A stretch of 43,349 nucleotides of DNA, from IMG/VR virus record IMGVR_UViG_2541047690_000002. One strand, written 5' to 3'. Each line of letters begins with the position of its first letter. Within the stretch, counting starts at the first letter, position 1. Source of the stretch: a virus. Its lineage: Duplodnaviria; Heunggongvirae; Uroviricota; Caudoviricetes. Both the position numbers and the translations under genes were made by a program. Shown here piece by piece: positions 1,459 through 33,762 of the stretch. The notes beneath the pieces were generated by a model. That model ran no database searches, was not told the DNA's origin, and saw only the letters and a program-made list of their open reading frames with translations.

Positions 1459-2622
1459 TTACACATCATTAGTACCTTCCTTATTTTTTGACTGGGACAA
1501 ATTTGGGACCGATGGGTTCAGGATCGAGTCTATTTGCCGTGCGTGTTCGGTAAGGTGATTAGGTGCAAGGTGAGCATATCGACGAACCATTTCGATAGAC
1601 TCCCAGCCTCCCATTTCCTGTAACACTGACAATGGGACTCCGGCTTGAACCAGCCAACTTGCCCAGGTGTGTCTCAAGTCGTGAAATCTGAAATCATCAA
1701 TACCAGCCCGTCTCAGCGCCGCTTTCCAGGCTGTGTTTGCGTCATACCGCATCTTCCTTACTGTTGGCGCTTTCGTTCCGTCTGGTTTGGTACAGCTTTC
1801 CTTGTACACAAATACCCAACGGTGATGATTCCCGATTTGTTTTTTCAATACGCGACATGCAGTATCATTCAGCGCAACGCCAATTGCGCGGTTTGATTTA
1901 CTCTCTTCCGGGTTTATCCATGCCACCCGGCGCTGCATGTCTATTTGTTGCCATTCAAGGTTGATGATGTTCGAGCGTCTTAAGCCTGTTGCCAGTGCAA
2001 ATTCAACAACAGACTTTAATGGCTCCGGACATTCATCAATCAGCCTTTGTGCTTCATGGGGCTCCAGCCAGCGGATCCGTTTATTCTTTGGTTGAGGCAC
2101 TTTAATAATTGGTGCCTTATCCAGCATTTTCCATTCACGCTCTGCGGCTCTTAGTAGGGCTTTTATAAATGAAAGATGCGTAGCCTTCGTTGCAACAGAC
2201 GCTGGTTTTGGCTTGTATTCTGGAACAGGTTTCCCTTTTTTTCTGCATGCTTCTGCCCTGAGTTTCCAGTTTTCCTCATTACGCCGGTTCGTCATTTTCT
2301 GCATTGCTGAATAAATTTTTGATTCAGTAATGTCTCTTAGTTGCATTCCTGCGAAATGTTGAAGCCAGAATCCGATCCGGCTTTTGTCATCGTCCAGTGA
2401 TTTTTTATGTGCTTTCTCTTCAAGCCACCTGACACACGCTTCCTCGAACGTTATATCAGGTATTTCACCAAGTTTGCTGACCCGCCATGCTTCAGCCTTT
2501 AGCTTGTCATGGAGTTCTGTCGCCTGCCTTTTGTCCTTTGTTCCAAGAGACTGTTTAAATCTTTTACCGTTCGGCAATGTGAAACTGGCGTACCATATTT
2601 CACCTCTGCGGAAGAGTGACAT
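1459..2622 (-). CDS. int: Tyrosine-type site-specific integrase, P22-like
   Basis: 387-aa ORF; translation recalled as very close to phage P22 Int; C-terminal catalytic-domain signature HDLRHTWAS...RRYAHL (His-X-X-Arg and the Tyr nucleophile region); adjacent to tRNA. Confidence 0.9.
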
Positions 2623-2849
2623 TTTCTTTCCTCTGTTATGCCATCACCCGCGCTCACCTGGACAGTATGCAGCGGAGACTGAAGCGCCGCAATGCAGGCT
2701 TGTCGTGTTGTGAGGTAAGGAGATTTTAGTTTAGTGGGGTCTTTGCGTGTTGCCTGTAGGCGGCCTGTTCGTATCCAGTTGGTAGCGGTAGGTCTGGATA
2801 TCTTGAGAAACTGACAGGCCTCATCGAGTGTGAGGCTGTATGATTCCAT
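2499..2849 (-). CDS. xis: Excisionase, P22-like
   Basis: 116-aa product if started at the internal ATG ([31 protein letters not shown]...); resembles P22 Xis; the 3' end overlaps the int start by about 124 nt. The longer track ORF (start 2879) is probably an upstream extension. Confidence 0.7.
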
Positions 2850-3099
2850 GGTTACCTCTGCTTTTTGAACGCATGTCACGTAACTTCTTAATGTGTTCTG
2901 CCGTTTCGATCTCTTCTGCTATCCGATCTGCATCAGCTTTATTCACAGGTTCAAAGTCATGATTAAAGCGGAACATGCTGGCGATACATGTTCTGCCTTT
3001 TCGGATGTAGTGAACTTTGTTGTGGGTAGAACGCAGGATTTTGCAGGGAGTGCCGTGGTGGTCGACGTACCAGGTGTTAGGAAAAATGATTCTGAACAT
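2821..3099 (-). CDS. Hypothetical small prophage protein
   Basis: 92-aa ORF with GAGGTG Shine-Dalgarno about 6 nt upstream of ATG at 3099; no recognisable motif; overlaps xis start by 29 nt. Confidence 0.4.
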   Translation of the reverse strand: MFRIIFPNTWYVDHHGTPCKILRSTHNKVHYIRKGRTCIASMFRFNHDFEPVNKADADRIAEEIETAEHIKKLRDMRSKSRGNHGIIQPHTR

Positions 3100-3146
3100 T
3101 TTTACACCTCAGTTGGACGATGTTGAAATTTGCTGCTTTGAGGCCA

Positions 3147-3365
3147 TCACAATCCCCATTGTTTGTTCTTAAGTTCGATCTCCTCCTGGCAACTTGCACA
3201 AGTCCGACAACCCTGAACGGCCAGGCGTCTTCGTTCATCTATGGGATCGCCACACTCACAACAATGAGTGGCAGATATAACCTGGTGGTTCAGACGACGC
3301 ATTTTTATTGCTGTATTGCGCTGTAATTCTTCGATTTCTGATGCTGAATCAATGATGTCTGCCAT
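3147..3365 (-). CDS. TraR/DksA-family C4 zinc-finger protein
   Basis: 72-aa ORF with CCECG...CRTCASC four-cysteine arrangement typical of phage/plasmid TraR-like zinc fingers. Confidence 0.6.
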   Translation of the reverse strand: MADIIDSASEIEELQRNTAIKMRRLNHQVISATHCCECGDPIDERRRLAVQGCRTCASCQEEIELKNKQWGL

Positions 3366-3463
3366 CTTCCATTAATCCCTGAATTGTTGGTTAATACGCT
3401 TGAGGGTGAATGCGAATAATAAAAAAGGAGCCTGTAGCTCCCTGATGATTTTGCTTTTCATGT

Positions 3464-3679
3464 TCATCGCTCCTTAAAGACGCCGTTTAACATGCCGATC
3501 GCCAGGCTTAAATGAGTCGGTGTGAATCCCATCAGCGTTACCGTTTCGCGGTGCTTCTTCAGTACGCTACGGCAAATGTCATCGACGTTTTTATCCGGAA
3601 ACTGCTGTCTGGCTTTTTTGATTTCAGAATTAGCCTGACGGGCAATACTGCGAAGGGCGTTTTCTTGCTGAGGTGTCAT
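3464..3679 (-). CDS. Small early-left protein (lambda orf60a-like)
   Basis: Internal ATG start giving MTPQQENALRSIARQANSEIKK...; resembles a small ORF of the lambda b2/exo-proximal region from memory. Confidence 0.45.
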   Translation of the reverse strand: MTPQQENALRSIARQANSEIKKARQQFPDKNVDDICRSVLKKHRETVTLMGFTPTHLSLAIGMLNGVFKER

Positions 3680-3755
3680 TGAACAAGTCCCATGTCGGCA
3701 AGCATAAGCACACAGAATATGAAGCCCGCTGCCAGAAAAATGCATTCAGTGGTTG

Positions 3756-3947
3756 TCATACCTGGTCTCTCTCATCTGCTTCTGCTTTCGCCACCATCAT
3801 TTCCAGCTTTTGTGAAAGGGATGCGGCTAACGTATGAAATTCTTCGTCTGTTTCTACTGGTATTGGCACAAACCTGACTCCAATTTGAGCGAGGCTATGT
3901 GCCATCTCAATGCTCGTTCTTAACTCAACAGGAGATGCTTTGTGCAT
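3756..3947 (-). CDS. Small early-left protein (lambda orf63-like)
   Basis: 63-aa [26 protein letters not shown]...; position and length match lambda orf63. Confidence 0.5.
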   Translation of the reverse strand: MHKASPVELRTSIEMAHSLAQIGVRFVPIPVETDEEFHTLAASLSQKLEMMVAKAEADERDQV

Positions 3948-4108
3948 ACAGCTCCCCGTTTATTATTTATCTCCTCAGCCAGCCGCTGTGCTTTCAGGGG
4001 ATTTCGGGTAACAGAAAGGCCGGGAAATACCCAGCCTCGCTTTGTAACGGAGTAGACGAAAGTGATCGCGCCTACCCGGATATTATCGTGAGGATGCGTC
4101 ATCGCCAT
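3920..4108 (-). CDS. Small early-left protein (lambda orf61-like)
   Basis: 62-aa [24 protein letters not shown]... immediately downstream of exo, as lambda orf61. Confidence 0.5.
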
Positions 4109-4779
4109 TGCTCCCCAAATACAAAACCAATTTCAGCCAGTGCCTCGTCCATTTTTTCGATGAACTCCGGCACCATCTCGTCAAAACTCGCCATGTACTT
4201 TTCATTCCGCTCAATCACGACATAATGCAGGCCTTCACGCTTCATGCGCGGGTCATAGTTGGCAAAGTACCAGGCATCTTTTCGCGTCACCCACATGCTG
4301 TACTGCACCTGGGCCATGTAAGCCGATTTTATTGCCTCGAAACCACCGAGCCGGAACTTCATGAAATCCCGGGAGGTAAACGGGCATTTCAGTTCAAGGC
4401 CGTTGCCGTCACTGCATAAACCATCGGGAGAGCAGGCGGTGCGCATACTTTCGTCGTGATAGATGATCGGGGATTCAGTAACATTCACGCCGGAAGTGAA
4501 TTCAAACAGGGTTCTGGCGTCGTTCTCGTACTGTTTTCCCCAGGCCAGCGCCTTAGCATTAACTTCCGGAGTCACACCGGTGCAAACCTCAGCCAGCAGG
4601 GTGTGGAAGTAGGACATTTTCATGTCAGGCCACTTCTTTCCTGAGCGGGGCTTTGCTATCACGTTGTGAACTTCTGAAGCGGTGATGACGCCGAGCCGTA
4701 ATTTGTGCCATGCATCATCCCCCTGTTCGACAGCTCTCACGTCGATCCCGGTACGCTGCAGGATAATGTCCGGTGTCAT
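4099..4779 (-). CDS. exo: Lambda exonuclease (Red-alpha)
   Basis: 226-aa translation recalled as near-identical to lambda Exo ([40 protein letters not shown]...). Confidence 0.95.
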
Positions 4780-5561
4780 GCTGCCACCTTCTGCTCAGTG
4801 GCTTTCTGTTTCAGGAATCCAAGAGCTTTCACTGCTTCGGCCTGTGTCAGTTCTGACGATGCGCGAATGTCGCGGCGAAATATCTGGGAACAGAGCGGCA
4901 ATAAGTCGTCATCCCATGTTTTATCCAGGGCTATCAGCAGAGTGTTAATCTCCTGCATGGTTTCATCGTTAACCGGAGTGATGTCGCGTTCTGGCTGACG
5001 TTCTGCAGTGTATGCAGTATTTTCGACAATGCGCTCGGCTTCATCCTTGTCATAGATACCAGCAAATCCGAAGGCCAGACGGGCACACTGAATCATGGCT
5101 TTATGCCGTAACATCCGTTTGGGATGCGACTGCCACGGCCCCGTGATTTCTCTGCCTTCGCGAGTTTTGAATGGTTCGCGGCGGCATTCATCCATCCATT
5201 CGGTAACGCAGATCGGATGATTACGGTCCTTGCGGTAAATCCGGCATGTACAGGATTCATTGTCCTGCTCAAAGTCCATGCCATCAAACTGCTGGTTTTC
5301 ATTGATGATGCGGGACCAGCCATCAACGCCCACCACCGGAACGATGCCGTTCTGCTTATCAGGGAAGGCGTAAATTTCTTTCGTCCACGGATTAAGGCCG
5401 TACTGGTTGGCGACGATCAACAATGCGATGAACTGCGCATCGCTGGCATCACCTTTAAATGCCGTCTGGCGAAGAGTGGTGATCAGTTCCTGTGGGTCGA
5501 CAGAATCCATGCCGACACGTTCAGCCAGCTTCCCTGCCAGCGTTGCGAGTGCTGTACTCAT
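4776..5561 (-). CDS. bet: Recombination protein Bet (Red-beta, single-strand annealing)
   Basis: 261-aa translation recalled as near-identical to lambda Bet; 4-nt overlap with exo. Confidence 0.95.
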
Positions 5562-5566
5562 CCGTT

Positions 5567-5863
5567 TTATACCTCTGAATCAATATCAACCTGGTGGTGA
5601 GCAATGGTTTCAACCATGTACTGGATGTGTTCTGCCATGCGCTCCTGAAACTCAACATCGTCATCAAACGCACGGGTAATGGCTTTTTTGCTGGCCCCGT
5701 GGCGTTGCAAATGATCGATGCATAGCGATTCAAACAGGTGCTGGGGCAGGCCTTTTTCCATGTCGTCTGCCAGTTCTGCCTCTTTCTCTTCACGGGCGAT
5801 CTGCTGGTAGTGACGCGCCCAGCTCTGAGCCTCAAGACGATCCTGAATGTAATAAGCGTTCAT
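5567..5863 (-). CDS. gam: Host-nuclease inhibitor Gam (short GamS form)
   Basis: 98-aa translation [21 protein letters not shown]... matches lambda GamS. Confidence 0.92.
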
Positions 5864-5938
5864 GGCTGAACTCCTGAAAATGGCTGTGAAAAAATCGCCC
5901 GCGGAATGCCAGGCTGATTCGGAAAACAGGAAAGGGGA

Positions 5939-6229
5939 TTAGTGATTCAGACCGTTGCCGCGTCCGTCGAGAAAAACTTCCACGAGCAAGTCACGGGTAT
6001 AAGTGCGCTCAATGCCGCGATGCAGATAAAGTCGTCCGCGTAAATTAGCTGATGCAGTCCAGGTACCATCTTTGCGTTTGACCAGCATTCCTGGCATGAC
6101 CGCACCGCGATTAACGGTCTGCGTTCCGTAATGTTGATGAACCATAAAAACTCCTGCCCGTAAGCTGGGCTGCTGAACATATAAAGACTTCTGCGCGTAT
6201 TCAGGCGGTGGATGGCCGCCGGTTGTCAT
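5939..6229 (-). CDS. Hypothetical protein, first gene of the leftward early operon (kil/cIII position)
   Basis: 96-aa ORF with no recognised motif; an overlapping 77-aa ORF in another frame makes the true frame and start uncertain. Confidence 0.3.
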   Translation of the reverse strand: MTTGGHPPPEYAQKSLYVQQPSLRAGVFMVHQHYGTQTVNRGAVMPGMLVKRKDGTWTASANLRGRLYLHRGIERTYTRDLLVEVFLDGRGNGLNH

Positions 6230-6419
6230 AACTAAGCCGCCTCGTTGAAGCGACTAAGGTATGAAATGTTGAGTTGATTTCAGCTGGTCACACCGACGTT
6301 CACGCGTCCGTTTCATCCCTCGCACTCCCCGAAGCCTGCTGAAATTCAAGCTGCGGATCTAAGCGGTCATCGCAACGGTGAATCAGGTGGTTGCCGTATC
6401 GTTGTGTTGTTGCGATATG

Positions 6420-6500
6420 GTGATAATAGCTATTGCTATTGGTGATATCAATACTTATTGCTATTAGTTGATGTGTTTTGATATTAAATGTTTGATAGCA
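6420..6500. promoter_or_regulatory. Putative leftward operator/promoter region (OL/PL analogue)
   Basis: AT-rich stretch with reiterated TATTGCTATT and GATATCAAAACAC-type motifs that recur in the cI-cro intergenic region (8860..8969); lies upstream of the leftward early genes. Confidence 0.45.
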
Positions 6501-6588
6501 AAAAGAATTAATTTTGTGACTTGCATCGCATAGCGATAACTGAAGTGAGGTCGTGGTGGTTTTTTGAACGGTGTGTGATGAGGGGAGG

Positions 6589-6617
6589 GCAAAAGAAAAC
6601 CCGGCACGGTGGCCGGG
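6589..6617 (-). terminator. Intrinsic terminator downstream of the cI-linked cassette
   Basis: Minus-strand reading: hairpin CCCGGC-(6 nt loop)-GCCGGG at 6600..6617 followed by GTTTTCTTTTGC U-tract (6589..6599); abuts the stop codon of the 149-aa membrane-protein gene. Confidence 0.6.
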
Positions 6618-7067
6618 TTATTGTTCTTGATTGATCTTATCGAAGATATCATGACTTAATTTTTGCACATTTAGGAAATTTACTATGAAGAAGACAATTG
6701 CGTAAATTATTAATGTGAAAAAAAGTATTGAAGGAGAGAATTTTAGTATCAGGGATTTAAATTCAAAGCTGAACTCATACTCTTTTAAATATTCACTAAG
6801 CACAAGGCATAAAGTAGAAAGAGTGAAAAAGCGCAAAAAAGAATTTCGTATAGATACCAATTCTTTTCTGATAACTTTAACATAATTAATGTTTTTAATG
6901 CCAGACATGTTAAAAGTTACAATCAACCCTAACCCGATAGAAAACATTATGCCACAGACAGAATACAATGTAGAAATCAAAAACTGATCAGGCCTCCAAG
7001 CTAAAAATGATGGAAGCCCGATAGTAATTATCAGAACAATTAGCAAGCTAGCTATTTGTCGCTTCAT
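6618..7067 (-). CDS. Small four-helix integral membrane protein in the RexB position (candidate exclusion-system effector)
   Basis: 149 aa; four hydrophobic segments of about 20 residues (approx. residues 4-24, 32-52, 80-100, 113-134); markedly AT-rich codon usage; 20-nt overlap with the upstream gene; same strand and immediately downstream of cI. Confidence 0.6.
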   Translation of the reverse strand: MKRQIASLLIVLIITIGLPSFLAWRPDQFLISTLYSVCGIMFSIGLGLIVTFNMSGIKNINYVKVIRKELVSIRNSFLRFFTLSTLCLVLSEYLKEYEFSFEFKSLILKFSPSILFFTLIIYAIVFFIVNFLNVQKLSHDIFDKINQEQ

Positions 7068-8073
7068 TTTCTATCTCTTTTAAATATCTGCTCATTTCTT
7101 GAAATACCTCTTGTTCTACAAGCTTGCCTGAATCAGTAACCTCAATTGTTACAATTTTAATCTTAAGAAGATCTTTGCCTTTTATTTCTGAGCGACCATC
7201 ACTTCGTTTGAATACAATGTTATCAAGATCACTAACAGGTTTTAATGTTGCACCTAATAGTTTAGCATAACTATCTTCATCCATGCTCCTTGGTTTACTA
7301 AACTTTATCAACAGTTCAGCTGATACTATTTGATTGTCAATTATTTCTTTTAGATTTGGGAAATTTGGTACAGCTGATTTCAATGCATTTAAAACAGCGT
7401 GTGAAAGTTTTATTTTTGTATTTTTTTCTTCAATTTCTGATGGTGGCGATTTCATATCGGATGACTGAACCAATACTTCTTTTGGAAGAGGAGATGGATC
7501 TCTCACAGAAATTGATTTTATATCCTTAAGCTGAACTTTATTACCTTTAACAATCATCGGTGTGAATTCAATCATTTCATTCCCAACCAGCCAGCGTATA
7601 TAAGTTTGTAGAGATGATATAGTCCTATTCATCTGCAGATTGGTAACTAAATAATTATCACTTATACAGAAGTAGAAATGGTTTTTGCATACGACCTCTG
7701 TATCAATGTCAGCATTATGGAGATCACTAATTGTAAATGATTTTTTGTTAAAAAGTTGATCGGGAATCTTTTCAACTCCCTCGCTTGGGGCAATTCTAAC
7801 CATTGTACAAAAAACAGAATTACTGTTGTCTGATGTCTGATAGAACGATATCAAATCTTGTTCTTGCCTAAGATCGTCAGAGTTTAAAACCATGCAACGT
7901 TCTTTTACGGTAGATGAGTCAACTAGCTTTTGTAATAAAAGCTTTTTCGCGGGGCTAGATTTTTCTGTTAGATTATTGTTTTCTATCTTAAAAGCTCTTA
8001 ATTTCACTTGTTTAGGTTTATTATGTTTTTTATTTACAGAGCTGCTATTTTCACTATTCATAGAATCAACCAT
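7048..8073 (-). CDS. Hypothetical 341-aa protein in the RexA position (candidate sensor of a cI-linked exclusion system)
   Basis: ATG at 8073; AT-rich, Lys/Asn/Ser-rich product without recognisable catalytic motif; 93-nt gap from cI stop, co-directional with cI. Confidence 0.55.
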   Translation of the reverse strand: MVDSMNSENSSSVNKKHNKPKQVKLRAFKIENNNLTEKSSPAKKLLLQKLVDSSTVKERCMVLNSDDLRQEQDLISFYQTSDNSNSVFCTMVRIAPSEGVEKIPDQLFNKKSFTISDLHNADIDTEVVCKNHFYFCISDNYLVTNLQMNRTISSLQTYIRWLVGNEMIEFTPMIVKGNKVQLKDIKSISVRDPSPLPKEVLVQSSDMKSPPSEIEEKNTKIKLSHAVLNALKSAVPNFPNLKEIIDNQIVSAELLIKFSKPRSMDEDSYAKLLGATLKPVSDLDNIVFKRSDGRSEIKGKDLLKIKIVTIEVTDSGKLVEQEVFQEMSRYLKEIENEATNS

Positions 8074-8166: not shown

Positions 8167-8859
8167 TCATCCATGCTTTCTGTATGTCTGCGGCATGCTC
8201 CCAATAACTTTCCCGAAGATAAACACCCGGTTCATCTCGTCTTTCTCGATCGGGTCCCACGGTGAGTAGCTCTTGTTATCAGAGATAACCAGCAGCTTAT
8301 CCTTCATCATTTGCAGGCGCTTTACATGGGCTGTGTCGTCATACAGAAACGCATAGATACCATCACCGTCGAAAGATTTAACCGTGATATCAACGAACAG
8401 AAGATCACCTGGTTCGATCGTTCCTGACATGCTGTCACCACGCACGTTAATGATGCGGATATTTTCCGCCTTCCTGCCATCGAACATGTGACGAGCATCG
8501 TCAAACGAGTACTCAACCGAGCGTAGAACTTCTACAAACTCACGGTTGATTACACCCGGCCCGGCACTGACTTCTATATCAAGAACGTCAATCTTGAAGT
8601 ATTTTGAATGGCTGACAGCAGGCTTCCCTGATTGTTGACCGTCATTTCTCATCGGGCCTATGCCTGATGAGAGCCATTCTGTTCGAACACCCAATGCATT
8701 AGCTATTTCAACAATTTTTGTTGAGCCGCGCGCGTTGCCGCTTGTCAGTCTCCAGATTGTGGGTTGAGCTACGCCAGACGCCTTTGCAAGAGCGCCTTGA
8801 GACATTCCAGATTGTTCCATCGCTAGGTTTAAGCGATCAGCAAGAGTTTCTTTTTTCAT
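8167..8859 (-). CDS. cI: CI-type prophage repressor (HTH plus LexA-like S24 peptidase domain)
   Basis: N-terminal HTH (QGALAKASGVAQPTIWRL), C-terminal self-cleavage motifs (GDSMSGTI, serine nucleophile; downstream Lys); start placed at the first ATG (MKKETL...); the track ORF reaches 8895 via a TTG codon. Confidence 0.8.
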   Translation of the reverse strand: MKKETLADRLNLAMEQSGMSQGALAKASGVAQPTIWRLTSGNARGSTKIVEIANALGVRTEWLSSGIGPMRNDGQQSGKPAVSHSKYFKIDVLDIEVSAGPGVINREFVEVLRSVEYSFDDARHMFDGRKAENIRIINVRGDSMSGTIEPGDLLFVDITVKSFDGDGIYAFLYDDTAHVKRLQMMKDKLLVISDNKSYSPWDPIEKDEMNRVFIFGKVIGSMPQTYRKHG

Positions 8860-8969
8860 AAGTTTTAATTTATACGCTTGCGTATTGATAGTCAAAACAC
8901 GTTTTGCTATTGCTTGGATTAATACGCATTGCTATTATTCATTCATTGCAATACCAATAGGAATTGATA
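8860..8969. promoter_or_regulatory. Divergent cI/cro operator-promoter region (OR, PRM/PR analogue)
   Basis: Intergenic between divergent repressor and cro; contains TTGCTATTGC, CATTGCTATT and TGATAGTCAAAACAC repeats shared with the 6420..6500 region. Confidence 0.55.
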
Positions 8970-9197
8970 ATGACAAATCAAACCATTCAACTCGCAATCA
9001 GTATTACAGGTAGTCAAAAACGACTGGCAGATCTATGCGGTGTAGCCCAACCCACAGTTTGGCGTTGGCTACACGGTGGCGGAATTGATGCCCGCTATGT
9101 AATGAAAATTGTCTCAGCCACTGGTGGAAAGATTAAACCAGCAGATATTCGTCCCGACCTCGCACCATTGTTTAACGCGAGTAATTCTGCCGCCTAA
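8970..9197 (+). CDS. cro: Cro-like HTH regulator (YdaS-type)
   Basis: About 75 aa; HTH motif GSQKRLADLCGVAQPTVWRW and C-terminal RPDLAPLF typical of YdaS-like Cro proteins; divergent from cI. Confidence 0.7.
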   Translation: MTNQTIQLAISITGSQKRLADLCGVAQPTVWRWLHGGGIDARYVMKIVSATGGKIKPADIRPDLAPLFNASNSAA

Positions 9198-9221
9198 ACT
9201 GCGGCGTTAACTGATAAGGCA

Positions 9222-9767
9222 ATGACTATGCAACCACTTACATACCAACAGACTAGCGGATTTAGCCCGACTGCGGTGATAAATCGTTCTCAAATAAAAC
9301 AAGCTCCAGACCACGAAAAAATCCGTGATGCCGTCCGCGCCTGGTCGGCTGTAGATAATCAGGATGTCGTTGCCGCACTCATTGTGAATGAGTATCGGGA
9401 GCAGGGCGACGGCACCATCGATTTCCCTGATGATGTCAGCCGTGCACGCCAGAAGCTGTTCCGCTTCCTCGATAACAAATTCGATTCTGAAAAATACCGA
9501 AATAACGTGCGTGAACTGACCCCGGCAATTCTGGCGGTACTACCGCTGGAATATCGCGGTTACCTGGTTGAGCAGGATAGCTTCATGACTCGGCTGGCTG
9601 AAATGGAAAAGGAACTCAGTGAGGCAAAACAGGCTGTCATTCTCAACGCACCACGCCACCAGAAACTGAAGGAAATTAGTGAAGGTATTGTGTCGATGTT
9701 TCGTGTGGACCCGGATCTGGCTGGTCCATTGATGGCGATGGTTACCACCATGTTGGGGGCAATATGA
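9222..9767 (+). CDS. Hypothetical protein in the cII position (possibly YdaT-like regulator)
   Basis: 181-aa ORF between cro and O; assignment by position and weak recollection of YdaT-family proteins following YdaS-type Cro; no motif verified. Confidence 0.35.
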   Translation: MTMQPLTYQQTSGFSPTAVINRSQIKQAPDHEKIRDAVRAWSAVDNQDVVAALIVNEYREQGDGTIDFPDDVSRARQKLFRFLDNKFDSEKYRNNVRELTPAILAVLPLEYRGYLVEQDSFMTRLAEMEKELSEAKQAVILNAPRHQKLKEISEGIVSMFRVDPDLAGPLMAMVTTMLGAI

Positions 9768-9853
9768 CAGGCTCAGAAATGGCGAAAGCCGGTCTGCGGG
9801 AACAGAGCCGACTTTCAGGCGCAAATCGTAACGCACTCATTGCGGGAGGAATT

Positions 9854-10783
9854 ATGGCAAACACTGCTGAGATATTCAATTTTCCAGTGCCGGATGTGGC
9901 ACAAAAGGAGCCGCGCGTGGCAGATCTCGATGATGGTTATACGCGCATTGCAAATGAGTTGCTGGAAGCTGTGATGCTGGCCGGATTAACACAGCACCAG
10001 CTTCTGGTCTTCCTGGCTGTCATGCGCAAAACATATGGCTTTAATAAAAAACTGGATTGGGTGAGCAACGAGCAACTTTCCGAATTGACCGGGATATTGC
10101 CGCACAAGTGTTCTGCTGCAAAAAGCGTTCTGGTAAAGCGTGGGATTCTTATTCAGAGCGGGCGGAATACCGGCATTAATAATGTGGTCAGTGAATGGTC
10201 AACATTACCCGAATCAGGTAAGAAAAATAAAGTTTACCTGAAAGAGGTAAATTTACCTGAATCAGGTAAAAAAAGTTTACCCAAATCAGGTAAAGACGTT
10301 TACCCGAATCAGGTAAACACAAAAGACAAACTAACAAAAGACAATATAAAACCTTATTCGTCCGAGAATTCTGGCGAATCCTCTGACCAGCCAGAAAACG
10401 ACCTTCCTGTGGTGAAACCGGATGCTGCGATTCAGAGCGGCAGCAAGTGGGGGACAGCAGAAGACCTGACCGCCGCAGAGTGGATGTTTGACATGGTGAA
10501 GACCATCGCGCCATCAGCCAGAAAACCGAATTTTGCAGGGTGGGCTAACGATATCCGCCTGATGCGTGAACGTGACGGACGTAACCACCGCGACATGTGC
10601 GTGCTGTTCCGCTGGGCATGCCAGGACAACTTCTGGTCCGGTAACGTGCTAAGTCCGGCCAAACTCCGCGACAAGTGGACCCAGCTCGAAATCAACCGTA
10701 ACAAGCAACAGGCAGGCGTGACAGCCAGCAAACCAAAACTCGACCTGACAAACACAGACTGGATTTACGGGGTTGATCTATGA
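9854..10783 (+). CDS. O: Replication initiator protein O (lambda-type)
   Basis: Start at ATG 9854 with GGGAGGA SD; N-terminus MANTAEIFNF...VADLDDGYTRIANELLEA parallels lambda O; contains in-frame iteron-encoded repeats LPESGKK. Confidence 0.88.
   Translation: MANTAEIFNFPVPDVAQKEPRVADLDDGYTRIANELLEAVMLAGLTQHQLLVFLAVMRKTYGFNKKLDWVSNEQLSELTGILPHKCSAAKSVLVKRGILIQSGRNTGINNVVSEWSTLPESGKKNKVYLKEVNLPESGKKSLPKSGKDVYPNQVNTKDKLTKDNIKPYSSENSGESSDQPENDLPVVKPDAAIQSGSKWGTAEDLTAAEWMFDMVKTIAPSARKPNFAGWANDIRLMRERDGRNHRDMCVLFRWACQDNFWSGNVLSPAKLRDKWTQLEINRNKQQAGVTASKPKLDLTNTDWIYGVDL
10203..10317. repeat. Replication origin iterons (ori-lambda type) inside the O gene
   Basis: Four to five direct repeats of TTTACC(C/T)GAATCAGGTAAA spaced about 23 bp apart (10205, 10233, 10252, 10276, 10299), followed by an A-rich stretch (10318..10355). 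Confidence 0.85.
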
Positions 10784-11502
10784 AAAACATCGCCGCACAG
10801 ATGATTAACTTTGACCGTGAGCAGATGCGTCGGATCGCCAACAACATGCCGGAACAGTACGACGAAAAGCCGCAGGTACAGCAGGTAGCGCAGATTATCA
10901 ATGGTGTGTTCAGCCAGTTACTGGCAACTTTCCCGGCGAGCCTGGCTAACCGGGACCAGAACGAACTGAACGAAATCCGCCGCCAGTGGGTGCTGGCTTT
11001 CCGGGAAAACGGGATCGCCACAATGGAACAGGTTAACGCAGGAATGCGCGTAGCCCGTCGGCAGAATCGACCATTTCTGCCATCACCCGGGCAGTTTGTT
11101 GCATGGTGCCGGGAAGAAGCATCCGTTACCGCCGGGCTGCCAAACGTCAGCGAGCTGGTTGATATGGTTTACGAGTATTGCCGGAAGCGTGGCCTGTATC
11201 CGGACGCAGAGTCTTATCCATGGAAATCAAACGCGCACTACTGGTTGGTTACCAACCTGTACCAGAATATGCGGGCCAATGCGTTGACTGACTCGGAATT
11301 ACGGCGCAAGGCTGCCGATGAACTTGCCCATATGACTGCGAGAATTAACCGTGGTGAGGCGATTCCCGAGCCAGTTAAACAGCTTCCGGTTATTGGTGGT
11401 AAGCCGCTATCCCGTATACAAGGATTGGCAAAGTTGGCTGAGATTCGCGAGAAGCACGGACTGAGAAGACGTAAACAATTAACGGGAGTGAAGCTAACCT
11501 GA
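10780..11502 (+). CDS. P: Replication protein P (DnaB helicase loader)
   Basis: 240-aa translation recalled as near-identical to lambda P over most of its length (MKNIAAQMINFDREQMRRIANNMPEQYDEKPQ...); start overlaps O stop (ATGA). Confidence 0.92.
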   Translation: MKNIAAQMINFDREQMRRIANNMPEQYDEKPQVQQVAQIINGVFSQLLATFPASLANRDQNELNEIRRQWVLAFRENGIATMEQVNAGMRVARRQNRPFLPSPGQFVAWCREEASVTAGLPNVSELVDMVYEYCRKRGLYPDAESYPWKSNAHYWLVTNLYQNMRANALTDSELRRKAADELAHMTARINRGEAIPEPVKQLPVIGGKPLSRIQGLAKLAEIREKHGLRRRKQLTGVKLT

Positions 11503-11847
11503 ACTACCTTCAAGACACATAAAACCTTTCCCCCAGAAAATATAGTTCATCCTGCGGCATCAACCAGACCGTAAACATTCTGACAAAGCAGGGCGATCTG
11601 GTCGATGTCAGCAATATCTAGCGAACGATTCACTACCGATTGGTAACCGAAGAGGAAATCTCTTGGCACAAAAGCACCAATCAGATTTTCGATGATGGCC
11701 CCCAAGCCCGGTGATGACGCGAATTTTACTAGCCTACGAGAGGAACGGAGCATGAAGACAGCACCGAGCACAGTGTAACTATTCGATTTTTTTCTGTTTG
11801 ATTTTTCGACATACTACATTATATAGCTCGATATCCTTTCATTTTAC

Positions 11848-13053
11848 TTATTCAATTAACGGTACTTGTTTGTTGCAGAATACTAATATTGCATCTTGAG
11901 TAAGTTTTTTATGCATATGCTTTAGCGGCTCAATGTTAGTCTCGTAACCGAAAGTAGCGAAAAGAGTTGGTTCTATAATGAAATTTTCTTCATAAGCTTT
12001 TAGATCAAATGCTCTCTTTGCAATTAATCTAACTGCTTTCTTTCTAATGCGTGAATTATATCTATTCTCTATGCTAAGTTTAGCCATGTTTTCATCGATG
12101 TTGTTTTTTTGTTTTTTTAGTATAATTTGAATGTGATCATCATCAATTTGGCCATCTCTATATATATAATCAATGTCATAATTAAAATCAAAAAGCTGAG
12201 TGTCATTTACACCTTCAAGAAAAGGATTTGAAAATGGGCTCATGATCGGATCGAGTGATTTTTTATAAGTACTATTGCATTTAGTGCAGCTAGGAATTAA
12301 GTTAAATAAACTAAAGGAGATCAACGGATATTTGTACTTAGGTATGAAATGATCAAATGCTGGCCTGTAGCTAGTACCTGTATGGTCTTCTACTTGTTCA
12401 ATTTCTTCACTGTTGCAATATGGGCATATGCTAATGTCTAAAAAACTGTTCAATTGATACGCTGTTTCTCTATCAATAAGTGAGTATTTAAATATTTCAG
12501 AAATATTTTTAACCCATGATGGAAATAACTTAATGGTATTTTCCTTTAAAGGACCACCATTCTTGATACTTATAAGATTAAGAATCTTATCTCTTAAACT
12601 AGATAATTTTTGTGGTGAGAAATGTGTATTTAATATATCCTCAAGTATTAGGCTTTGTGTAGTTTGAGAGAAAGATGTGATTATTTTGATGGCATGTGCT
12701 AGTTCATTATAAACTATTTTTTTGTTTTCTTTTGTTTTTAAAGGTAATTGTAGGTTTGTTAATGGTTGTAAATTTAAGTGCCTTAAAAAATAATCAGGAG
12801 AATAGTACTCACACACAATTGGGTGTTTGTTGTATATTTTGATGATTATATTTTTTAATCGTTTGGGTTTTGAAAAAACTAATTTTCTGATAGTTTTTTT
12901 GTTGATTGTATTTAGAAACTCTACTTCATCGGGAGTAATGTTCAGTAACTTCCTCTGCTTCACGCGTTTATTAACTTTGCTTACTATTTTAGAAAAGGAT
13001 ATTTTTACATCAACATTGAAGTCTTTGTTTATTTTTATCATTTTTTTACTCAT
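11848..13053 (-). CDS. HNH (His-Me finger) motif protein, putative nuclease effector (PtuB-like)
   Basis: 401 aa; motif CPYCN-x20-DHFIPKYKYP-x10-NLIPSCTKCN at residues about 210-260 (nt about 12265..12426) matches the C-X2-C...DH...N...C-X2-C HNH pattern; extremely AT-rich; start overlaps upstream ATPase stop (ATGA). Confidence 0.6.
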   Translation of the reverse strand: MSKKMIKINKDFNVDVKISFSKIVSKVNKRVKQRKLLNITPDEVEFLNTINKKTIRKLVFSKPKRLKNIIIKIYNKHPIVCEYYSPDYFLRHLNLQPLTNLQLPLKTKENKKIVYNELAHAIKIITSFSQTTQSLILEDILNTHFSPQKLSSLRDKILNLISIKNGGPLKENTIKLFPSWVKNISEIFKYSLIDRETAYQLNSFLDISICPYCNSEEIEQVEDHTGTSYRPAFDHFIPKYKYPLISFSLFNLIPSCTKCNSTYKKSLDPIMSPFSNPFLEGVNDTQLFDFNYDIDYIYRDGQIDDDHIQIILKKQKNNIDENMAKLSIENRYNSRIRKKAVRLIAKRAFDLKAYEENFIIEPTLFATFGYETNIEPLKHMHKKLTQDAILVFCNKQVPLIE

Positions 13054-14837
13054 TTCTCAAAAGAATCTGTTTTATCATTGTTTTTGTTTAACTTCAGATC
13101 AATAAGATTTATGAGAAGTTTATTTTTAATTTGTGATAGTATGGTTTTTTGATGTTTATTTAAATTACCGTCATCTGAGTTTTTTATTATTGAGTTTAGA
13201 TAATTATGTGCGTGCTGTCCTATTGTAGCATCAATAAAAAAACCATTTATATATAATTCTGATATGGTTGCTCCGAAACCAAACTCTACTTTCTTAGTAT
13301 AGGTTCCTTGATTATGATCTCTTTCAAGATATATTATATCTGATGGCAAAAAATCACTTGCGAGTATAGGGGAGTGAGTTGTAAATACTAATTGAATATT
13401 TTTACTTTGTTTATATCTTAATGTTAAATCTATAATTTCTGAAAAAATAACTCGTTGCCATTCAGGGTGTAGATATAAATCACACTCATCTAATAATATT
13501 ATAATATTTTTGCTGTTGCTATGTTCTATAGAATCATAAAGTTGATTGAAAAGGTTTAATTTTGCAAACTCTCCTGAACTAAGTGAATCCCAACCATACT
13601 TAAATCGCGATGATACGCCATTTGGTAACCTATCAACTAATCTTATTAACTCCATAATCTGCTTTGGTTCTTCAACTGTGAAAGATAAACTATCAACTGG
13701 GTCTCTTGCTGTGTTTTCTAATATATCAGCTATATTACCTATAATGTCGGAGATATGTTCAGATAACATTTCTATTTTTGACTGAAATTTAACATTAACG
13801 TTAAATTCATCTAAAGTCTCTAATATAGTTTTTGCTGGATCTTTTTCTTCAAGATACGCGCGACACAAGCAAAATAAATAAACAGTCTCACATATGTCTT
13901 TAGGGATTTTTGATGTCTTGAGTAAATGCCATGTTATTGCAGGCAAAAGCATCAAGTAAATTATTTTGTGATATGAAAAGGTTGCGAGGAAATTTAATGA
14001 TCTTTCTTTGTTAAAAATAATGCTAATAATAAAATCTTCATCGTAATCTATCCCATGATTGAGTATATCCACAAGTGAAATACCTAAAGAATCTAAATCA
14101 CGTTCAATATATCTAGGGAGTTTATTGTTTTTAATTCTATCATTCAACGTATCAAAAAAGTATTCAATAGCTCCAAAAAGTCCTTTGTCACCAATATCAT
14201 TGTTTTTTATAATAGAATTTATTTTATATACTGGTGAGTTTTCTATTTCAAATTGAAATTTAGTATTAAGTCTTGATAAATTGTCTTTAGCCCATGAACT
14301 GTGGTCTGAAAATGAAATTAATTGCTTGAGTAATTTCTTATTGCGTGTTTTACTGCCTTGCAAAAAATATGACAGTGATAAATCTTTAGAAATCGAATCG
14401 TTTTTTTTCTTTTTTTGTCCAACTAACATACTTTTGAGGTCGATTGTGTTATTTATCTTTATTAGGTTGATTTTGTTTCTTCTAAAAAAATGTTCATTAT
14501 TATCAATCAGTTCCGTTTGCATTTTGGATAATATTACAGGAGGTTTGCAATTGCTTGTGATAATTATAAGTTTATCATTTTCATTCCAGATGCTATAACC
14601 GCTACCTTCAAAATCGTAAATAAAGCTACTAATGAAATCTAAAATTGATGACTTTCCAACACCATTTTTCCCTAAAATTAATGTACAGGGAATATTGCTA
14701 TAATAGTCACGACTTAAATCTTTCTTAGCAATTGTAAGGACGTTACCTTTATGGCTAAAGGTAAATTTACTTGAGGTGGGGAGGGACAGCTTATTTAAAC
14801 CTTTATAATTGTGGATATAAGTGTATATTAGTTCCAT
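13050..14837 (-). CDS. ABC-type/AAA ATPase (PtuA/AriA/OLD-like defense ATPase)
   Basis: 595 aa; Walker A GKNGVGKSS (residues 56-64), ABC-signature-like LSSGE, Walker B IIILLDECD and H-loop FTTHSP near the C-terminus; AT-rich. Confidence 0.7.
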   Translation of the reverse strand: MELIYTYIHNYKGLNKLSLPTSSKFTFSHKGNVLTIAKKDLSRDYYSNIPCTLILGKNGVGKSSILDFISSFIYDFEGSGYSIWNENDKLIIITSNCKPPVILSKMQTELIDNNEHFFRRNKINLIKINNTIDLKSMLVGQKKKKNDSISKDLSLSYFLQGSKTRNKKLLKQLISFSDHSSWAKDNLSRLNTKFQFEIENSPVYKINSIIKNNDIGDKGLFGAIEYFFDTLNDRIKNNKLPRYIERDLDSLGISLVDILNHGIDYDEDFIISIIFNKERSLNFLATFSYHKIIYLMLLPAITWHLLKTSKIPKDICETVYLFCLCRAYLEEKDPAKTILETLDEFNVNVKFQSKIEMLSEHISDIIGNIADILENTARDPVDSLSFTVEEPKQIMELIRLVDRLPNGVSSRFKYGWDSLSSGEFAKLNLFNQLYDSIEHSNSKNIIILLDECDLYLHPEWQRVIFSEIIDLTLRYKQSKNIQLVFTTHSPILASDFLPSDIIYLERDHNQGTYTKKVEFGFGATISELYINGFFIDATIGQHAHNYLNSIIKNSDDGNLNKHQKTILSQIKNKLLINLIDLKLNKNNDKTDSFEK

Positions 14838-15359
14838 TATATAACCAATCTCTTAAATATGAAAAAACATAATGGGGTGATAGGCGTATTTGAAAAATAC
14901 ACGCTACCGCCACCTAGCGTTAAGCTGGGAGTGTTATTTTTATATTTTACCCCAAGTATTTGTTTTATGCAATTGTATCATCACATCTTTTGAAAGTTTG
15001 CTTTCTAAATGTAATTGTAATTTTAAACGGGTTTAATTGTTTTAAAGTGTTTGGGTGATTTGTTTTTCGAGGTTGCCTTCATAAATTAAGAGATAAAAAC
15101 GTTGTAATGTATTTTTATATGAGTGAGCTAATAAATGAAATCTTGATTGAAAATTATAGGTTGGCGGTTACTTAAATTTGATTTTCCAAAATCAGATCGT
15201 CATAATTATCGCATCGAAGCCTGAACACCTCCGGTGACTTCTGCGCTAAACGGGGACGTTTATGCGCACATACAATCTAAACTCTCTTCTCCCTTCACAG
15301 ATGCAGAAATGCACCTGCGATTCTTTGCATCCAACGTTTGACCTCTGCGGAGGTGAAGC

Positions 15360-16764: not shown

Positions 16765-16849
16765 AGTCAGAGATAACAATCAACTAATACTGTTTTGTTG
16801 ATTTTTGCTTGTGATTGGCGTTCTGGTCTGATTTTTGTGGAGTAAGTTG

Positions 16850-17233
16850 ATGCGTGATATTCAGATGGTTCTTGAGCGTTGGGGAGCGTGGGCGGCTAAT
16901 AATCATGAAGATGTGACCTGGTCGTCCATTGCCGCCGGTTTTAAGGGATTAATTCCTTCAAAAGTAAAATCTCGCCCGCAATGTTGTGACGATGACGCGA
17001 TGATCATTTGCGGGTGCATGGCCCGTCTGAAAAAGAACAACAGCGATTTGCACGATTTATTAGTAGATTATTATGTAGTCGGTATGACATTCATGTCACT
17101 GGCAGGTAAGCATTGCTGCTCTGATGGTTATATCGGGAAAAGGTTACAGAAGGCTGAGGGCATAATTGAAGGGATGTTAATGGCATTAGATATCCGGTTA
17201 GAGATGGATATCGTTGTTAATAACTCTAATTAA
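16850..17233 (+). CDS. quuD: Late-gene antiterminator Q (QuuD-like)
   Basis: 127-aa product from ATG 16850 ([24 protein letters not shown]...); matches DLP12 QuuD from memory; Cys-rich zinc-binding region. Confidence 0.85.
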
Positions 17234-32043: not shown

Positions 32044-32622
32044 ATGGCCATAAAAGGTCTTGAGCAGGCCGTTGAAAACCTCAGCCGTATCAGCAGAACG
32101 GCGGTGCCCGGTGCCGCCGCAATGGCCATTAACCGCGTTGCTTCATCCGCGATATCGCAGTCGGTGGCACAGGTTGCCCGTGAGACAAAGGTACGCCGGA
32201 AACTGGTAAAGGAAAGGGCCAGGCTGAAAAGGGCCACGGTCAAAAATCCGCAGGCCAGAATCAGGGTTAGCCGGGGGGATTTGCCCGTAATAAAGCTGGG
32301 TAACGCGCGGGTTGTCCTGTCCCGACGCAGGCGTCGTAAAAAGGGGCAGCGTTCAGCCCTGAAAGGTGGCGGCAGTGTGCTTGTGGTGGGAAACCGTCGT
32401 ATTCCCGGCGCGTTTATTCAGCAACTGAAAAATGGCCGGTGGCATGTCATGCAGCGTGTGGCCGGGAAAAACCGTTACCCCATTGATGTGGTGAAAATCC
32501 CGATGGCGGTGCCGCTGACCACGGCGTTTAAACAGAATATTGAACGGATACGGCGTGAACGTCTCCCGAAAGAGCTGGGCTATGCGCTGCAGCATCAACT
32601 GAGAATGGTAATAAAGCGATGA
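32044..32622 (+). CDS. Z: Tail protein Z
   Basis: 192-aa translation matches lambda gpZ. Confidence 0.93.
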   Translation: MAIKGLEQAVENLSRISRTAVPGAAAMAINRVASSAISQSVAQVARETKVRRKLVKERARLKRATVKNPQARIRVSRGDLPVIKLGNARVVLSRRRRRKKGQRSALKGGGSVLVVGNRRIPGAFIQQLKNGRWHVMQRVAGKNRYPIDVVKIPMAVPLTTAFKQNIERIRRERLPKELGYALQHQLRMVIKR

Positions 32623-33014
32623 AACATACTGAACTCCGTGCAGCCGTACTGGATGCACTGGAGAAGCATGACACCGGGGCGACGCTTTTTGATGGTCGCC
32701 CCGCTGTTTTTGATGAGGAAGATTTTCCGGCAATTGCCGTTTATCTCACCGGCGCTGAATACACGGGCGAAGAGCTGGACAGCGATACCTGGCAGGCGGA
32801 GCTGCATATTGAAGTTTCCCTGCCTGCTCAGGTGCCGGATTCAGAGCTGGATTCGTGGATGGAGTCCCGGATTTATCCGGTGATGAGCGATATCCCGGCA
32901 CTGTCAGATTTGATCACCAGTATGGTGGCCAGTGGCTATGACTACCGGCGCGACGATGATGCGGGCCTGTGGAGTTCAGCCGATCTGACTTATGTCATTA
33001 CCTATGAAATGTGA
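32619..33014 (+). CDS. U: Tail terminator protein U
   Basis: 131-aa translation matches lambda gpU. Confidence 0.93.
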
Positions 33015-33021
33015 GGACGCT

Positions 33022-33762
33022 ATGCCTGTACCAAATCCTGTAATGCCGGTGAAAGGTGCCGGGACCACCCTGTGGGTTTATAAGGGGAGCGGTGACCCTT
33101 ATGCGAACCCGCTTTCAGACGTTGACTGGTCGCGTCTGGCAAAAGTTAAAGACCTGACGCCCGGCGAACTGACCGCTGAGTCCTATGACGACAGCTATCT
33201 CGATGATGAAGATGCAGACTGGACTGCGACCGGGCAGGGGCAGAAATCTGCCGGAGATACCAGCTTCACGCTGGCGTGGATGCCCGGAGAGCAGGGGCAG
33301 CAGGCGCTGCTGGCGTGGTTTAATGAAGGTGATACCCGTGCCTATAAAATCCGCTTCCCGAACGGCACGGTCGATGTGTTCCGCGGCTGGGTCAGCAGTA
33401 TCGGTAAGGCGGTGACGGCGAAGGAAGTGATTACCCGCACGGTGAAAGTCACCAACGTAGGACGTCCGTCGATGGCAGAAGATCGCAGCACGGTAACAGC
33501 GGCAACCGGCATGACCGTGACGCCTGCCAGCACCTCGGTGGTGAAAGGGCAGAGCACGACGCTGACCGTGGCATTCCAGCCGGAAGGCGCAACCGACAAG
33601 AGCTTCCGTGCGGTGTCTGCGGATAAAACAAAAGCCACCGTGTCGGTCAGTGGTATGACCATCACCGTGAAAGGTGTTGCTGCAGGCAAGGTCAACATTC
33701 CGGTCGTATCCGGTAATGGTGAACTTGCTGCGGTTGCAGAAATCAACGTCACCGCCAGTTAA
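33022..33762 (+). CDS. V: Major tail tube protein V
   Basis: 246-aa product from ATG 33022 ([22 protein letters not shown]...) matches lambda gpV, including the C-terminal Ig-like domain. Confidence 0.93.

Follow-up and report, generated by a model that had tools for sequence, protein, structure and literature searches.

A compact left early operon without N or put in a lambdoid prophage, with a modular leader in front of kil

The leftward early operon discussed here lies in IMG/VR record IMGVR_UViG_2541047690_000002, a lambdoid prophage of the lambda-like E. coli type that is adjoined by proA and a tRNA gene (1369-1441); its whole stretch of 43,349 nucleotides (nt) is called the window, and positions are counted in it. 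Textbook accounts of processive antitermination are built on two cases, N of lambda and put of HK022. The operon has neither of them. Its leftward promoter (PL), its operators, the identities of its genes, a leader built of modules and the lack of N, nut and put are established, and we regard the arrangement as a real variation on lambdoid early control that is widespread. By comparison with lambda, the stretch from PL to kil, with nutL, N, tL1, ral, ea10 and cIII, appears to be gone, so that transcription from PL would run through the leader straight into kil, here of the KilR type, and on into a gam-bet-exo block that is 97% lambda. We tentatively prefer to read this as a compact N-less, put-less PL operon of the Bievrevirus (4A7) type, with no known processive antitermination, in which the leader would be a regulatory 5′ untranslated region (5′UTR) for toxic kil.

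The features of the operon, in the order of transcription, are the following.

6424-6503, strand not assigned: left operator (OL) repeats with the core TTGCTATT; the right operator (OR, 8902-8965) carries the same motif
6423-6451, minus strand: PL promoter, with -35 TTGATA at 6451-6446, a 17-nt spacer and -10 TATTAT at 6428-6423
6267-6416, minus strand: 150-nt leader module, beginning at the predicted +1; so far in Escherichia prophages and phages only
6254-6316, minus strand: 20-codon arginine-rich small open reading frame (sORF), MKRTRERRCDQLKSTQHFIP (MKRTRERRC...), from ATG 6316 to a TAG, with a Shine-Dalgarno (SD) sequence GGGGAG 8 nt upstream
6146-6266, minus strand: pre-kil intergenic unit with three hairpins, common to HK225, HK639, S9-5 and CobraSix
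5939-6145, minus strand: kil, first gene of the operon, 68 residues (aa), FtsZ-inhibitor family (phrog_294, NF008465, alignment of relatives, PGAP/RefSeq)
5567-5863, minus strand: gam (Pfam Gam, E 2e-64), inside the lambda-like block
4776-5561, minus strand: bet, left early operon
4099-4779, minus strand: exo, left early operon
4009-4036, minus strand: intrinsic terminator inside orf60a, just after exo; GGCTGGG-TATTT-CCCGGCC followed by TTTCTGTTA (hairpin 4036-4018 plus U-run)
3415-3443, minus strand: strong intrinsic terminator at the boundary between orf61 and the DksA-like gene-xis-int segment; AGGGAGCTACAGGCTCCTT followed by TTTTATTATT (hairpin 3443-3425), identical to lambda
1459-2622, minus strand: int; towards higher positions, and so before it in the transcript, lie xis, the DksA-like gene and homologues of orf61, orf63 and orf60a

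PL is the best sigma-70 match between 1300 and 12000, agreeing at 10 of 12 positions. Its transcription start is predicted at about 6416, because of the positions of the -35 and -10 elements and because the conserved leader begins exactly there in relatives with other promoters. The operator-like repeats described in the original prediction are genuine, since the motif WWTTGCTATTR (at most one mismatch) is enriched, with 14 matches against 5.9 ± 2.3 expected, and is common to OL and OR, where 10 of the 14 fall (6424-6503 and 8902-8965). The coordinates given there were also right: an open reading frame (ORF) occupies 5939-6229 on the minus strand, 388 bp from the cassette end at 6618.

That frame, then held to be an unrecognised first gene of 96 aa, is now recognised as Kil. 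Over the whole of the 68-aa protein described below, it matches phrog_294 in PHROGs with E 1.4e-37 and the NCBIfam model NF008465, 'FtsZ inhibitor protein' (the Rac KilR model), with 58.9 bits (E 3.7e-16), under the cut-off of 92. On these scores, the window Kil is a member of the broad family and a distant relative of Rac KilR, not its equivalog; inhibition of FtsZ and of cell division is predicted from the family name. The Pfam copy that was searched gave no match to it; related Kil proteins (P0008-P0033) bear the precomputed label PF27398, apparently a newer Pfam family. The conserved start codon is ATG 6145, behind the SD sequence GGAG (6154-6151); all 11 relatives aligned, from six genera, begin there, and PGAP and RefSeq annotate a kil of 207 nt. 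The 28-codon extension to 6229 is frameshifted in one relative and overlies conserved RNA hairpins. ATG 6145 is almost certainly the true start, to judge from this alignment, and the 96-aa ORF (5939-6229) an over-extension. Because kil begins at ATG 6145, the leader is about 271 nt long; the length of roughly 190 nt proposed earlier would hold (187 nt) only if ATG 6229 were used.

The gene stands at a mosaic junction. The segment 3170-5945, which spans gam, bet, exo, orf60a, orf63 and orf61, is 97.4% identical (blastn) to lambda 30418-33193, and the non-lambda DNA between the lambda-like pieces is confined to 5946-6591, that is, to kil, the leader and OL/PL. The lambda-identical block has its edges at 3170 and at 5945/5946, the latter exactly at the kil stop codon, and it would therefore be at this precise junction that a KilR-type kil has replaced that of lambda. 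The Stx phages have gam in common with the window but not its kil at the DNA level. The resemblance to the Rac prophage goes beyond the family of the first PL gene: both have YdaS/YdaT-type cro/cII genes, and the long untranslated leader of the window, C-rich in parts, may be a further likeness. The Rac gene differs, apart from the score just given, in that Rho control is reported for Rac kilR only; silencing of Rac kilR via NusG and Rho has been reported (PMC5793797).

The original prediction found no recognisable N gene in 5864-6617, and the profile searches agree, with nothing N-like from PL to gam. We scanned small open frames of 30-149 aa in the PL operon (2600-6480, minus strand) and in the operon of the rightward promoter, PR (8900-11900, plus strand), with PHROGs; the scan omitted five out-of-frame fragments inside bet, exo and orf60a, and it returned the expected genes and nothing N-like. 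The 96-aa frame and the 77-aa frame overlapping it gave nothing N-like in Pfam or PHROGs, neither early operon contains an arginine-rich ORF of N-like length, and a scan of HK225 and HK639 for N-like families at the same place, directly after PL, gave only genes of unknown function. The search for nut motifs that had been suggested gave no boxA (YGCTCTTTA, at most one mismatch) in either early leader (5800-6500 and 8900-9300), no dedicated boxB model being used. Likewise, nothing in the PR operon repeats a segment of the leader, the best score being 25 against 23 ± 2.5 in shuffles.

The companion claim, that this interval holds no ORF with an arginine-rich motif of the N type, has to be qualified: the 20-codon sORF is such a frame, although it is far too short for N. 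It occupies the expected N position, its SD sequence, at 8 nt, is usable, and its RERRCDQ resembles the arginine-rich motif of lambda N, which we take to be RERRAEK. It is tempting to see in it a functional mini-N or a remnant of N, of which the peptide, or a 125-aa fusion of the arginine-rich motif with Kil, would bind a leader hairpin. For its variation we used 54 distinct haplotypes of the locus, drawn from IMG/VR and from further loci. The start codon alternates between GTG (43 of 54) and ATG (10 of 54), and the second codon between AAA and AAG, a synonymous change, which speaks in its favour. The stop codon TAG at 6256 is CAG in 37 of the 54, which joins the frame to that of kil. Of the 54 haplotypes, 32 keep this fusion open throughout and 17 have a stop in it, while an insertion of 5 nt breaks it in four and a deletion of 1 nt in one. 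Thus no single product is kept (32 fused, 17 stopped, five frameshifted), and in the window itself the product has only 20 aa. An arginine-rich motif alone lacks the parts of N that bind NusA and RNA polymerase, and the leader offers neither a boxA nor a hairpin repeated in the PR operon. A full-length N ancestor sharing the N-terminus of the sORF was sought among 5.8 billion proteins and rejected: no longer homologue appeared, the matches being E. coli deletion chimeras and 96-aa Kil calls. A mini-N is therefore very improbable in our estimation, and the sORF is a curiosity, at most a regulatory leader peptide.

The second known solution is an RNA. The put antiterminator RNAs of HK022 and HK639 go back to King et al. 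2011, as cited in PMC9378689, and a survey of lambdoid phages states that N-less phages 'may' use put (Genome Research 2025; PMC12315714). A put-like element as in HK022 had accordingly been offered for this leader in the original prediction. Rfam has no put family, and in it HK022 putL and putR go unmatched; its lack of any match in our leader (gathering and E-value thresholds) is thus uninformative on put. A covariance model (R1) was made from nine put RNAs, namely HK022 putL and putR, HK639 putL and six further phage put RNAs. With filters off, this model finds nothing in 6146-6416; its best hit in the window has 9.1 bits (E 0.61) and lies at 8760-8809, inside cI, as against 51-55 bits for copies of putR on which it had not been trained and 51-101 bits for all true puts. 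The same model recovers 22 put elements in 21 of 120 other viral contigs. It finds no put in the right operon of HK639, whose cro/YdaT right arm is that of the window.

Could the leader nonetheless be an HK022-type put that has diverged? An RNA of this type has a consensus of two stems in roughly 75 nt, and it acts through the zinc-binding domain of the β′ subunit of RNA polymerase, which then reads through terminators further on. It has the position, just downstream of PL in an N-less lambdoid, and like the put RNAs of HK022 and HK639 it is a conserved untranslated RNA running from the predicted +1; position alone is no proof of put membership. The resemblances in sequence are short (GGGAUGAAACGG compared with put AGGAUGAACGG), the conserved core GAACGGCGCG...GGCGGGUUCAGGAUGAACGGCAAU is missing, and the leader fails the unfiltered model that all true puts pass. 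Moreover, put RNAs are kept across Escherichia, Salmonella, Erwinia and Pantoea, unlike this leader, which is not kept across genera. We consider a diverged put refuted by both sequence and structure. Of the two possibilities raised at the outset, a different antitermination mechanism or none at all, the HK022-type put thus finds no support and 'none' is the leading reading. Nor does RfaH offer a way out at this promoter, as its loading site (ops) is absent from 5800-6500 even when two mismatches are allowed, the sole exact copy being at 14900-14911 on the minus strand. As far as these motif and profile searches reach, the window is without N/nut, an HK022-type put, or an RfaH site at PL.

What occupies the place instead is a leader of two parts. 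The promoter-proximal part, the 150-nt module, is carried by 2,314 of the 5,426 complete E. coli genomes (43%) and occurs, at 95-100% identity, in 16 phages, including 4A7 (genus Bievrevirus), PhiR68_2 and Perceval. Across the 54 haplotypes its junction lies exactly at +1, and the promoters and operators upstream are of at least three unrelated sets; in two haplotypes (type 3) only its first 35 nt are replaced. C outnumbers G by 15 to 5 in its first 40 nt and again in a second stretch at 6296-6247, the middle of the leader being G-rich; the sORF may be translated. An 8-bp stem I is predicted between AUCGCAAC (6416-6409) and GUUGCGAU (6376-6369), closing a 32-nt A/C-rich loop, and a stem-loop II at 6365-6323. 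The E. coli haplotypes display no compensatory pairs in the module, only one-sided GC/GU changes, and the leader folds no better than shuffled sequences (z = -1.3, +0.34 and -1.0); because HK022 putL itself scores only -0.8, these thermodynamic z-scores are uninformative. Diversity in the module is 0.025; the third positions of codons in kil and gam reach 0.05-0.06, and the first and second positions in kil 0.004.

No similarity to the module was found outside Escherichia. Relatives in Kluyvera and Citrobacter keep the flanking promoter (77-85%) and kil (about 80%), but not the module. Homology of the E. coli leader with those of Citrobacter, Kluyvera and Enterobacter was considered and rejected: the conserved core of the latter is the hairpin before the kil ribosome-binding site, and an nhmmer profile of this core misses the unique module. 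The leaders of the window, HK639 and Kluyvera all begin with AUCG... and have a 5′ hairpin with an A/C-rich loop. A full-text search of the literature for strings of the leader sequence gave no mention of it, and its mechanism has so far apparently not been studied.

The promoter-distal part is the pre-kil unit. It occurs in at least 120 IMG/VR viral contigs, with and without put, and folds with z = -1.8. In an alignment with HK225, S9-5, CobraSix and HK639, hairpin A (6264-6226) displays compensatory changes; next comes UUAGUUAUGA, a stretch that is conserved; hairpin B (GGCGG-CCAUCCA-CCGCC, 6220-6204) is nearly invariant, its loop included; and hairpin C (GCCC..GGGC, 6170-6156) stands directly before the SD sequence of kil. 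Hairpin B of HK639 is annotated as a terminator and has a T-run after it, which that of the window lacks. We also considered whether hairpin B could be a terminator that has been 'disarmed' in phages without an antiterminator, and rejected this, as the T-run occurs in only 7 of the 120 contigs and does not track with put (2 of 21 put loci, 0 of 37 loci with a leader of the window's type and 5 of 62 others).

Since no known antitermination system was found, how far would transcription from PL go? A scan of the PL strand from 6416 to 1459 for a hairpin followed by a U-run yielded exactly two canonical intrinsic terminators, of which the first lies 2.4 kb downstream of PL, past exo. This one corresponds to about 31.27 kb in lambda, from which it differs at 4008 only, at the distal end of the U-run; we take it to be lambda tL3. 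Because the first 2.4 kb hold no intrinsic terminator, kil, gam, bet and exo would be reachable without antitermination, and xis and int would not, unless the terminators leak. Among the things that would count against it, the original prediction named membership of the 96-aa protein in a Kil/CIII family together with freely terminating transcription; the membership is found for Kil, and the question nevertheless stays legitimate, given these two terminators before xis/int.

The reading that we prefer can now be stated as a mechanism. Transcription from PL would be unmodified by any known processive antitermination system, and RNA polymerase would reach kil-gam-bet-exo for want of any intrinsic terminator in the first 2.4 kb. 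The leader would act in cis as the 5′UTR of the toxic kil through its 5′ hairpin, through a C-rich, G-poor, rut-like stretch exposing leaky transcripts to Rho and NusG, and through the three hairpins before the ribosome-binding site of kil. Beyond the two lambda-type terminators, xis and int would be served by partial read-through or by another route. This put-less reading has in its favour the lack of N, nut and put, the base composition at the start of the leader, the Rac kilR precedent, the right operon of HK639, which is without put as well, and the absence of the module in Kluyvera and Citrobacter while true put RNAs are kept across genera. The kil-first operons of Silvania and Enterobacter (L014 and L015) are of interest here: their leader of about 75 nt consists of the 5′ hairpin and hairpin C, and because these leaders are so short, an elaborate leader RNA is not obligatory for kil-first operons.

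The most instructive relative is IMG/VR contig IMGVR_UViG_2568526609_000001 (L113). Its order is cI, moron, PL, an HK639-type putL (97 bits), pre-kil unit, a 54-aa ORF, kil, gam, recT and exo; its pre-kil unit starts at the same TTTCATAC junction as that of the window, and a homologue of the window's 3443 terminator comes further on. By this comparison, putL of L113 and the 150-nt module of the window are alternative occupants of one slot. A different proposal to be weighed is that the module (6416-6267), possibly together with the 5′ hairpin shared with HK639, is a cis-acting antiterminator RNA, an analogue of putL, that carries polymerase past the tL3-like and 3443 terminators to xis/int. 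Besides the exact putL slot with its identical downstream junction, the start at +1 and the linkage to at least three operator sets, as for nutL and putL, speak for it, and so does the 5′ start that it has in common with HK639 (AUCG..A/C-rich loop..CGAUA). A phage family with neither N nor put keeps lambda-identical terminators before xis/int; the module is under moderate purifying selection, and 43% of complete E. coli genomes have it; and the weak fold signal, being uninformative, does not count against it. On the other side, the module has no likeness to put in sequence or structure, no covariation among close relatives, a fold no better than shuffles (z = +0.34) and no partner copy in the PR operon. 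It is not kept outside Escherichia, where relatives manage with leaders of about 75 nt, and the type 3 haplotypes do without its first 35 nt. We regard such an RNA as possible but less probable than the put-less 5′UTR; its more specific form, in which the module would stand for a class of its own among processive antiterminator RNAs, acting in cis, bearing no sequence relationship to put and loading onto RNA polymerase at PL, is a little less probable again.

Several observations weigh against the 5′UTR reading itself. As L113 suggests, the slot taken by the module may normally hold an antiterminator. The module starts precisely at +1, travels with at least three immunity types and evolves at about 40-50% of the rate at third codon positions, which indicates moderate constraint. 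Two terminators, lambda-identical or nearly so, stand between exo and xis/int, for which no sigma-70-like promoter was seen, and close relatives such as PhiR68_2 and 4A7 were recovered as phages despite them. In the rightward operon, an AT-rich cassette of 3 kb, inverted, stands between PR and Q and has to be traversed by transcription from PR. Finally, a Rho/NusG attenuator is proposed from base composition and the Rac kilR precedent only.

An antiterminator need not be encoded at PL. In principle, a protein made elsewhere in the prophage, for instance by a small early gene, could act in trans on a site in the leader, as profiles do not reliably detect proteins that diverge as much as those of the N type, and several early ORFs are of no known function (phrog_303, phrog_285, DUF1317, DUF1382 and the two ORFs of the cI-linked cassette). 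The slot of N, first after PL, is taken by kil, and the early operons hold no arginine-rich ORF of the length of N. The cassette ORFs differ among relatives with the same leader, and the ORFs of no known function downstream of exo are also present in lambda, where their counterparts are non-essential. We thus consider a trans-acting protein unlikely, although less so than a mini-N.

The place of the operon among known systems can be summarized as follows. With lambda it shares the slot of the N/nutL module (PL-nutL-N-tL1), to the left of OL/PL and outside the immunity-specific segment, and the same downstream gam-bet-exo-orf60a-orf63-orf61 block, 97.4% identical, terminators included; unlike lambda, it has no N gene, no boxA and no hairpin repeated in the two early operons, and ral, ea10 and cIII are also absent. 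With HK639 (NC_016158) it shares the cro/YdaT right arm. Its closest counterparts are the Escherichia phages 4A7 (Bievrevirus), PhiR68_2, Perceval, Lambda_4C10, 1W and 3W, which are 93-99.9% identical to it over 5560-6617, the whole leader included, and which have the order cI, moron cassette, PL, leader, kil, gam. They differ in the cassette genes and in some operator sets, and their records annotate no feature in the leader.

The remaining features of the control region and its surroundings are these.

6598-6619, both directions: GC hairpin from the terminator scan, closing the cI-linked cassette just upstream of OL/PL
6618-8073, minus strand: AT-rich two-gene cassette linked to cI, in the rexAB slot
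8167-8895, minus strand: cI
8964-9197, plus strand: cro, YdaS-type
9222-9767, plus strand: 'cII', YdaT-type; O and P come next
16835-17233, strand not given: Q (phrog_79)

The hairpin region 6592-6628 is homologous to the hairpin after lambda rexB, with 86% identity over 37 nt (lambda 35799-35835). A match to Rfam isrJ at 6596-6659 (minus strand) is below threshold (29.1 bits, where the gathering score is 37; E 0.004) and probably reflects only the terminator hairpin at the 3′ end of the cassette. The cassette has 33% GC and encodes a hydrophobic protein of 149 aa and a protein of 341 aa, neither of which has a match in Pfam, PHROGs, NCBIfam or PADLOC. The contents of the rexAB slot vary among relatives with the same leader: an ASCH-domain gene and a hypothetical gene in 4A7, two small ORFs in E. 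coli 2014C-3307.

A second cassette (11848-14837, minus strand) stands inverted in the segment from P to nin/Q, where transcription from PR on its way to Q meets it head-on. Its two genes, of 26-31% GC, match the candidate defence system PDC-M62, with a PtuA-like ATPase (595 aa) and a PtuB/HNH-like protein (401 aa). Upstream of this cassette is a gap of 520 nt, and in it lies the exact 12-nt ops site mentioned above (GGCGGTAGCGTG), for which the chance expectation in the window is about 0.005. The combination suggests an RfaH-dependent defence moron. In HK639 (L004), an 'M3-like RNA' is annotated after the YdaT-type cII gene (11911-11970, plus strand); the window has no intergenic space there, as O overlaps cII at 9764-9767.

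For the annotation of this group, the immediate consequence is that the first PL gene is the 68-aa Kil and not a 96-aa unknown. Beyond this, the operon represents a third arrangement, in which a lambda-like left operon keeps the terminators of lambda with neither N nor put, and which is widespread, both in E. coli (2,314 of 5,426 genomes) and in phages such as 4A7 and PhiR68_2. If these phages do without early antitermination, the generality of the lambda paradigm and the expression of xis and int on induction would need rethinking. If, alternatively, the 150-nt module antiterminates, it would be by far the commonest RNA antiterminator in E. coli, present in about 43% of complete genomes.

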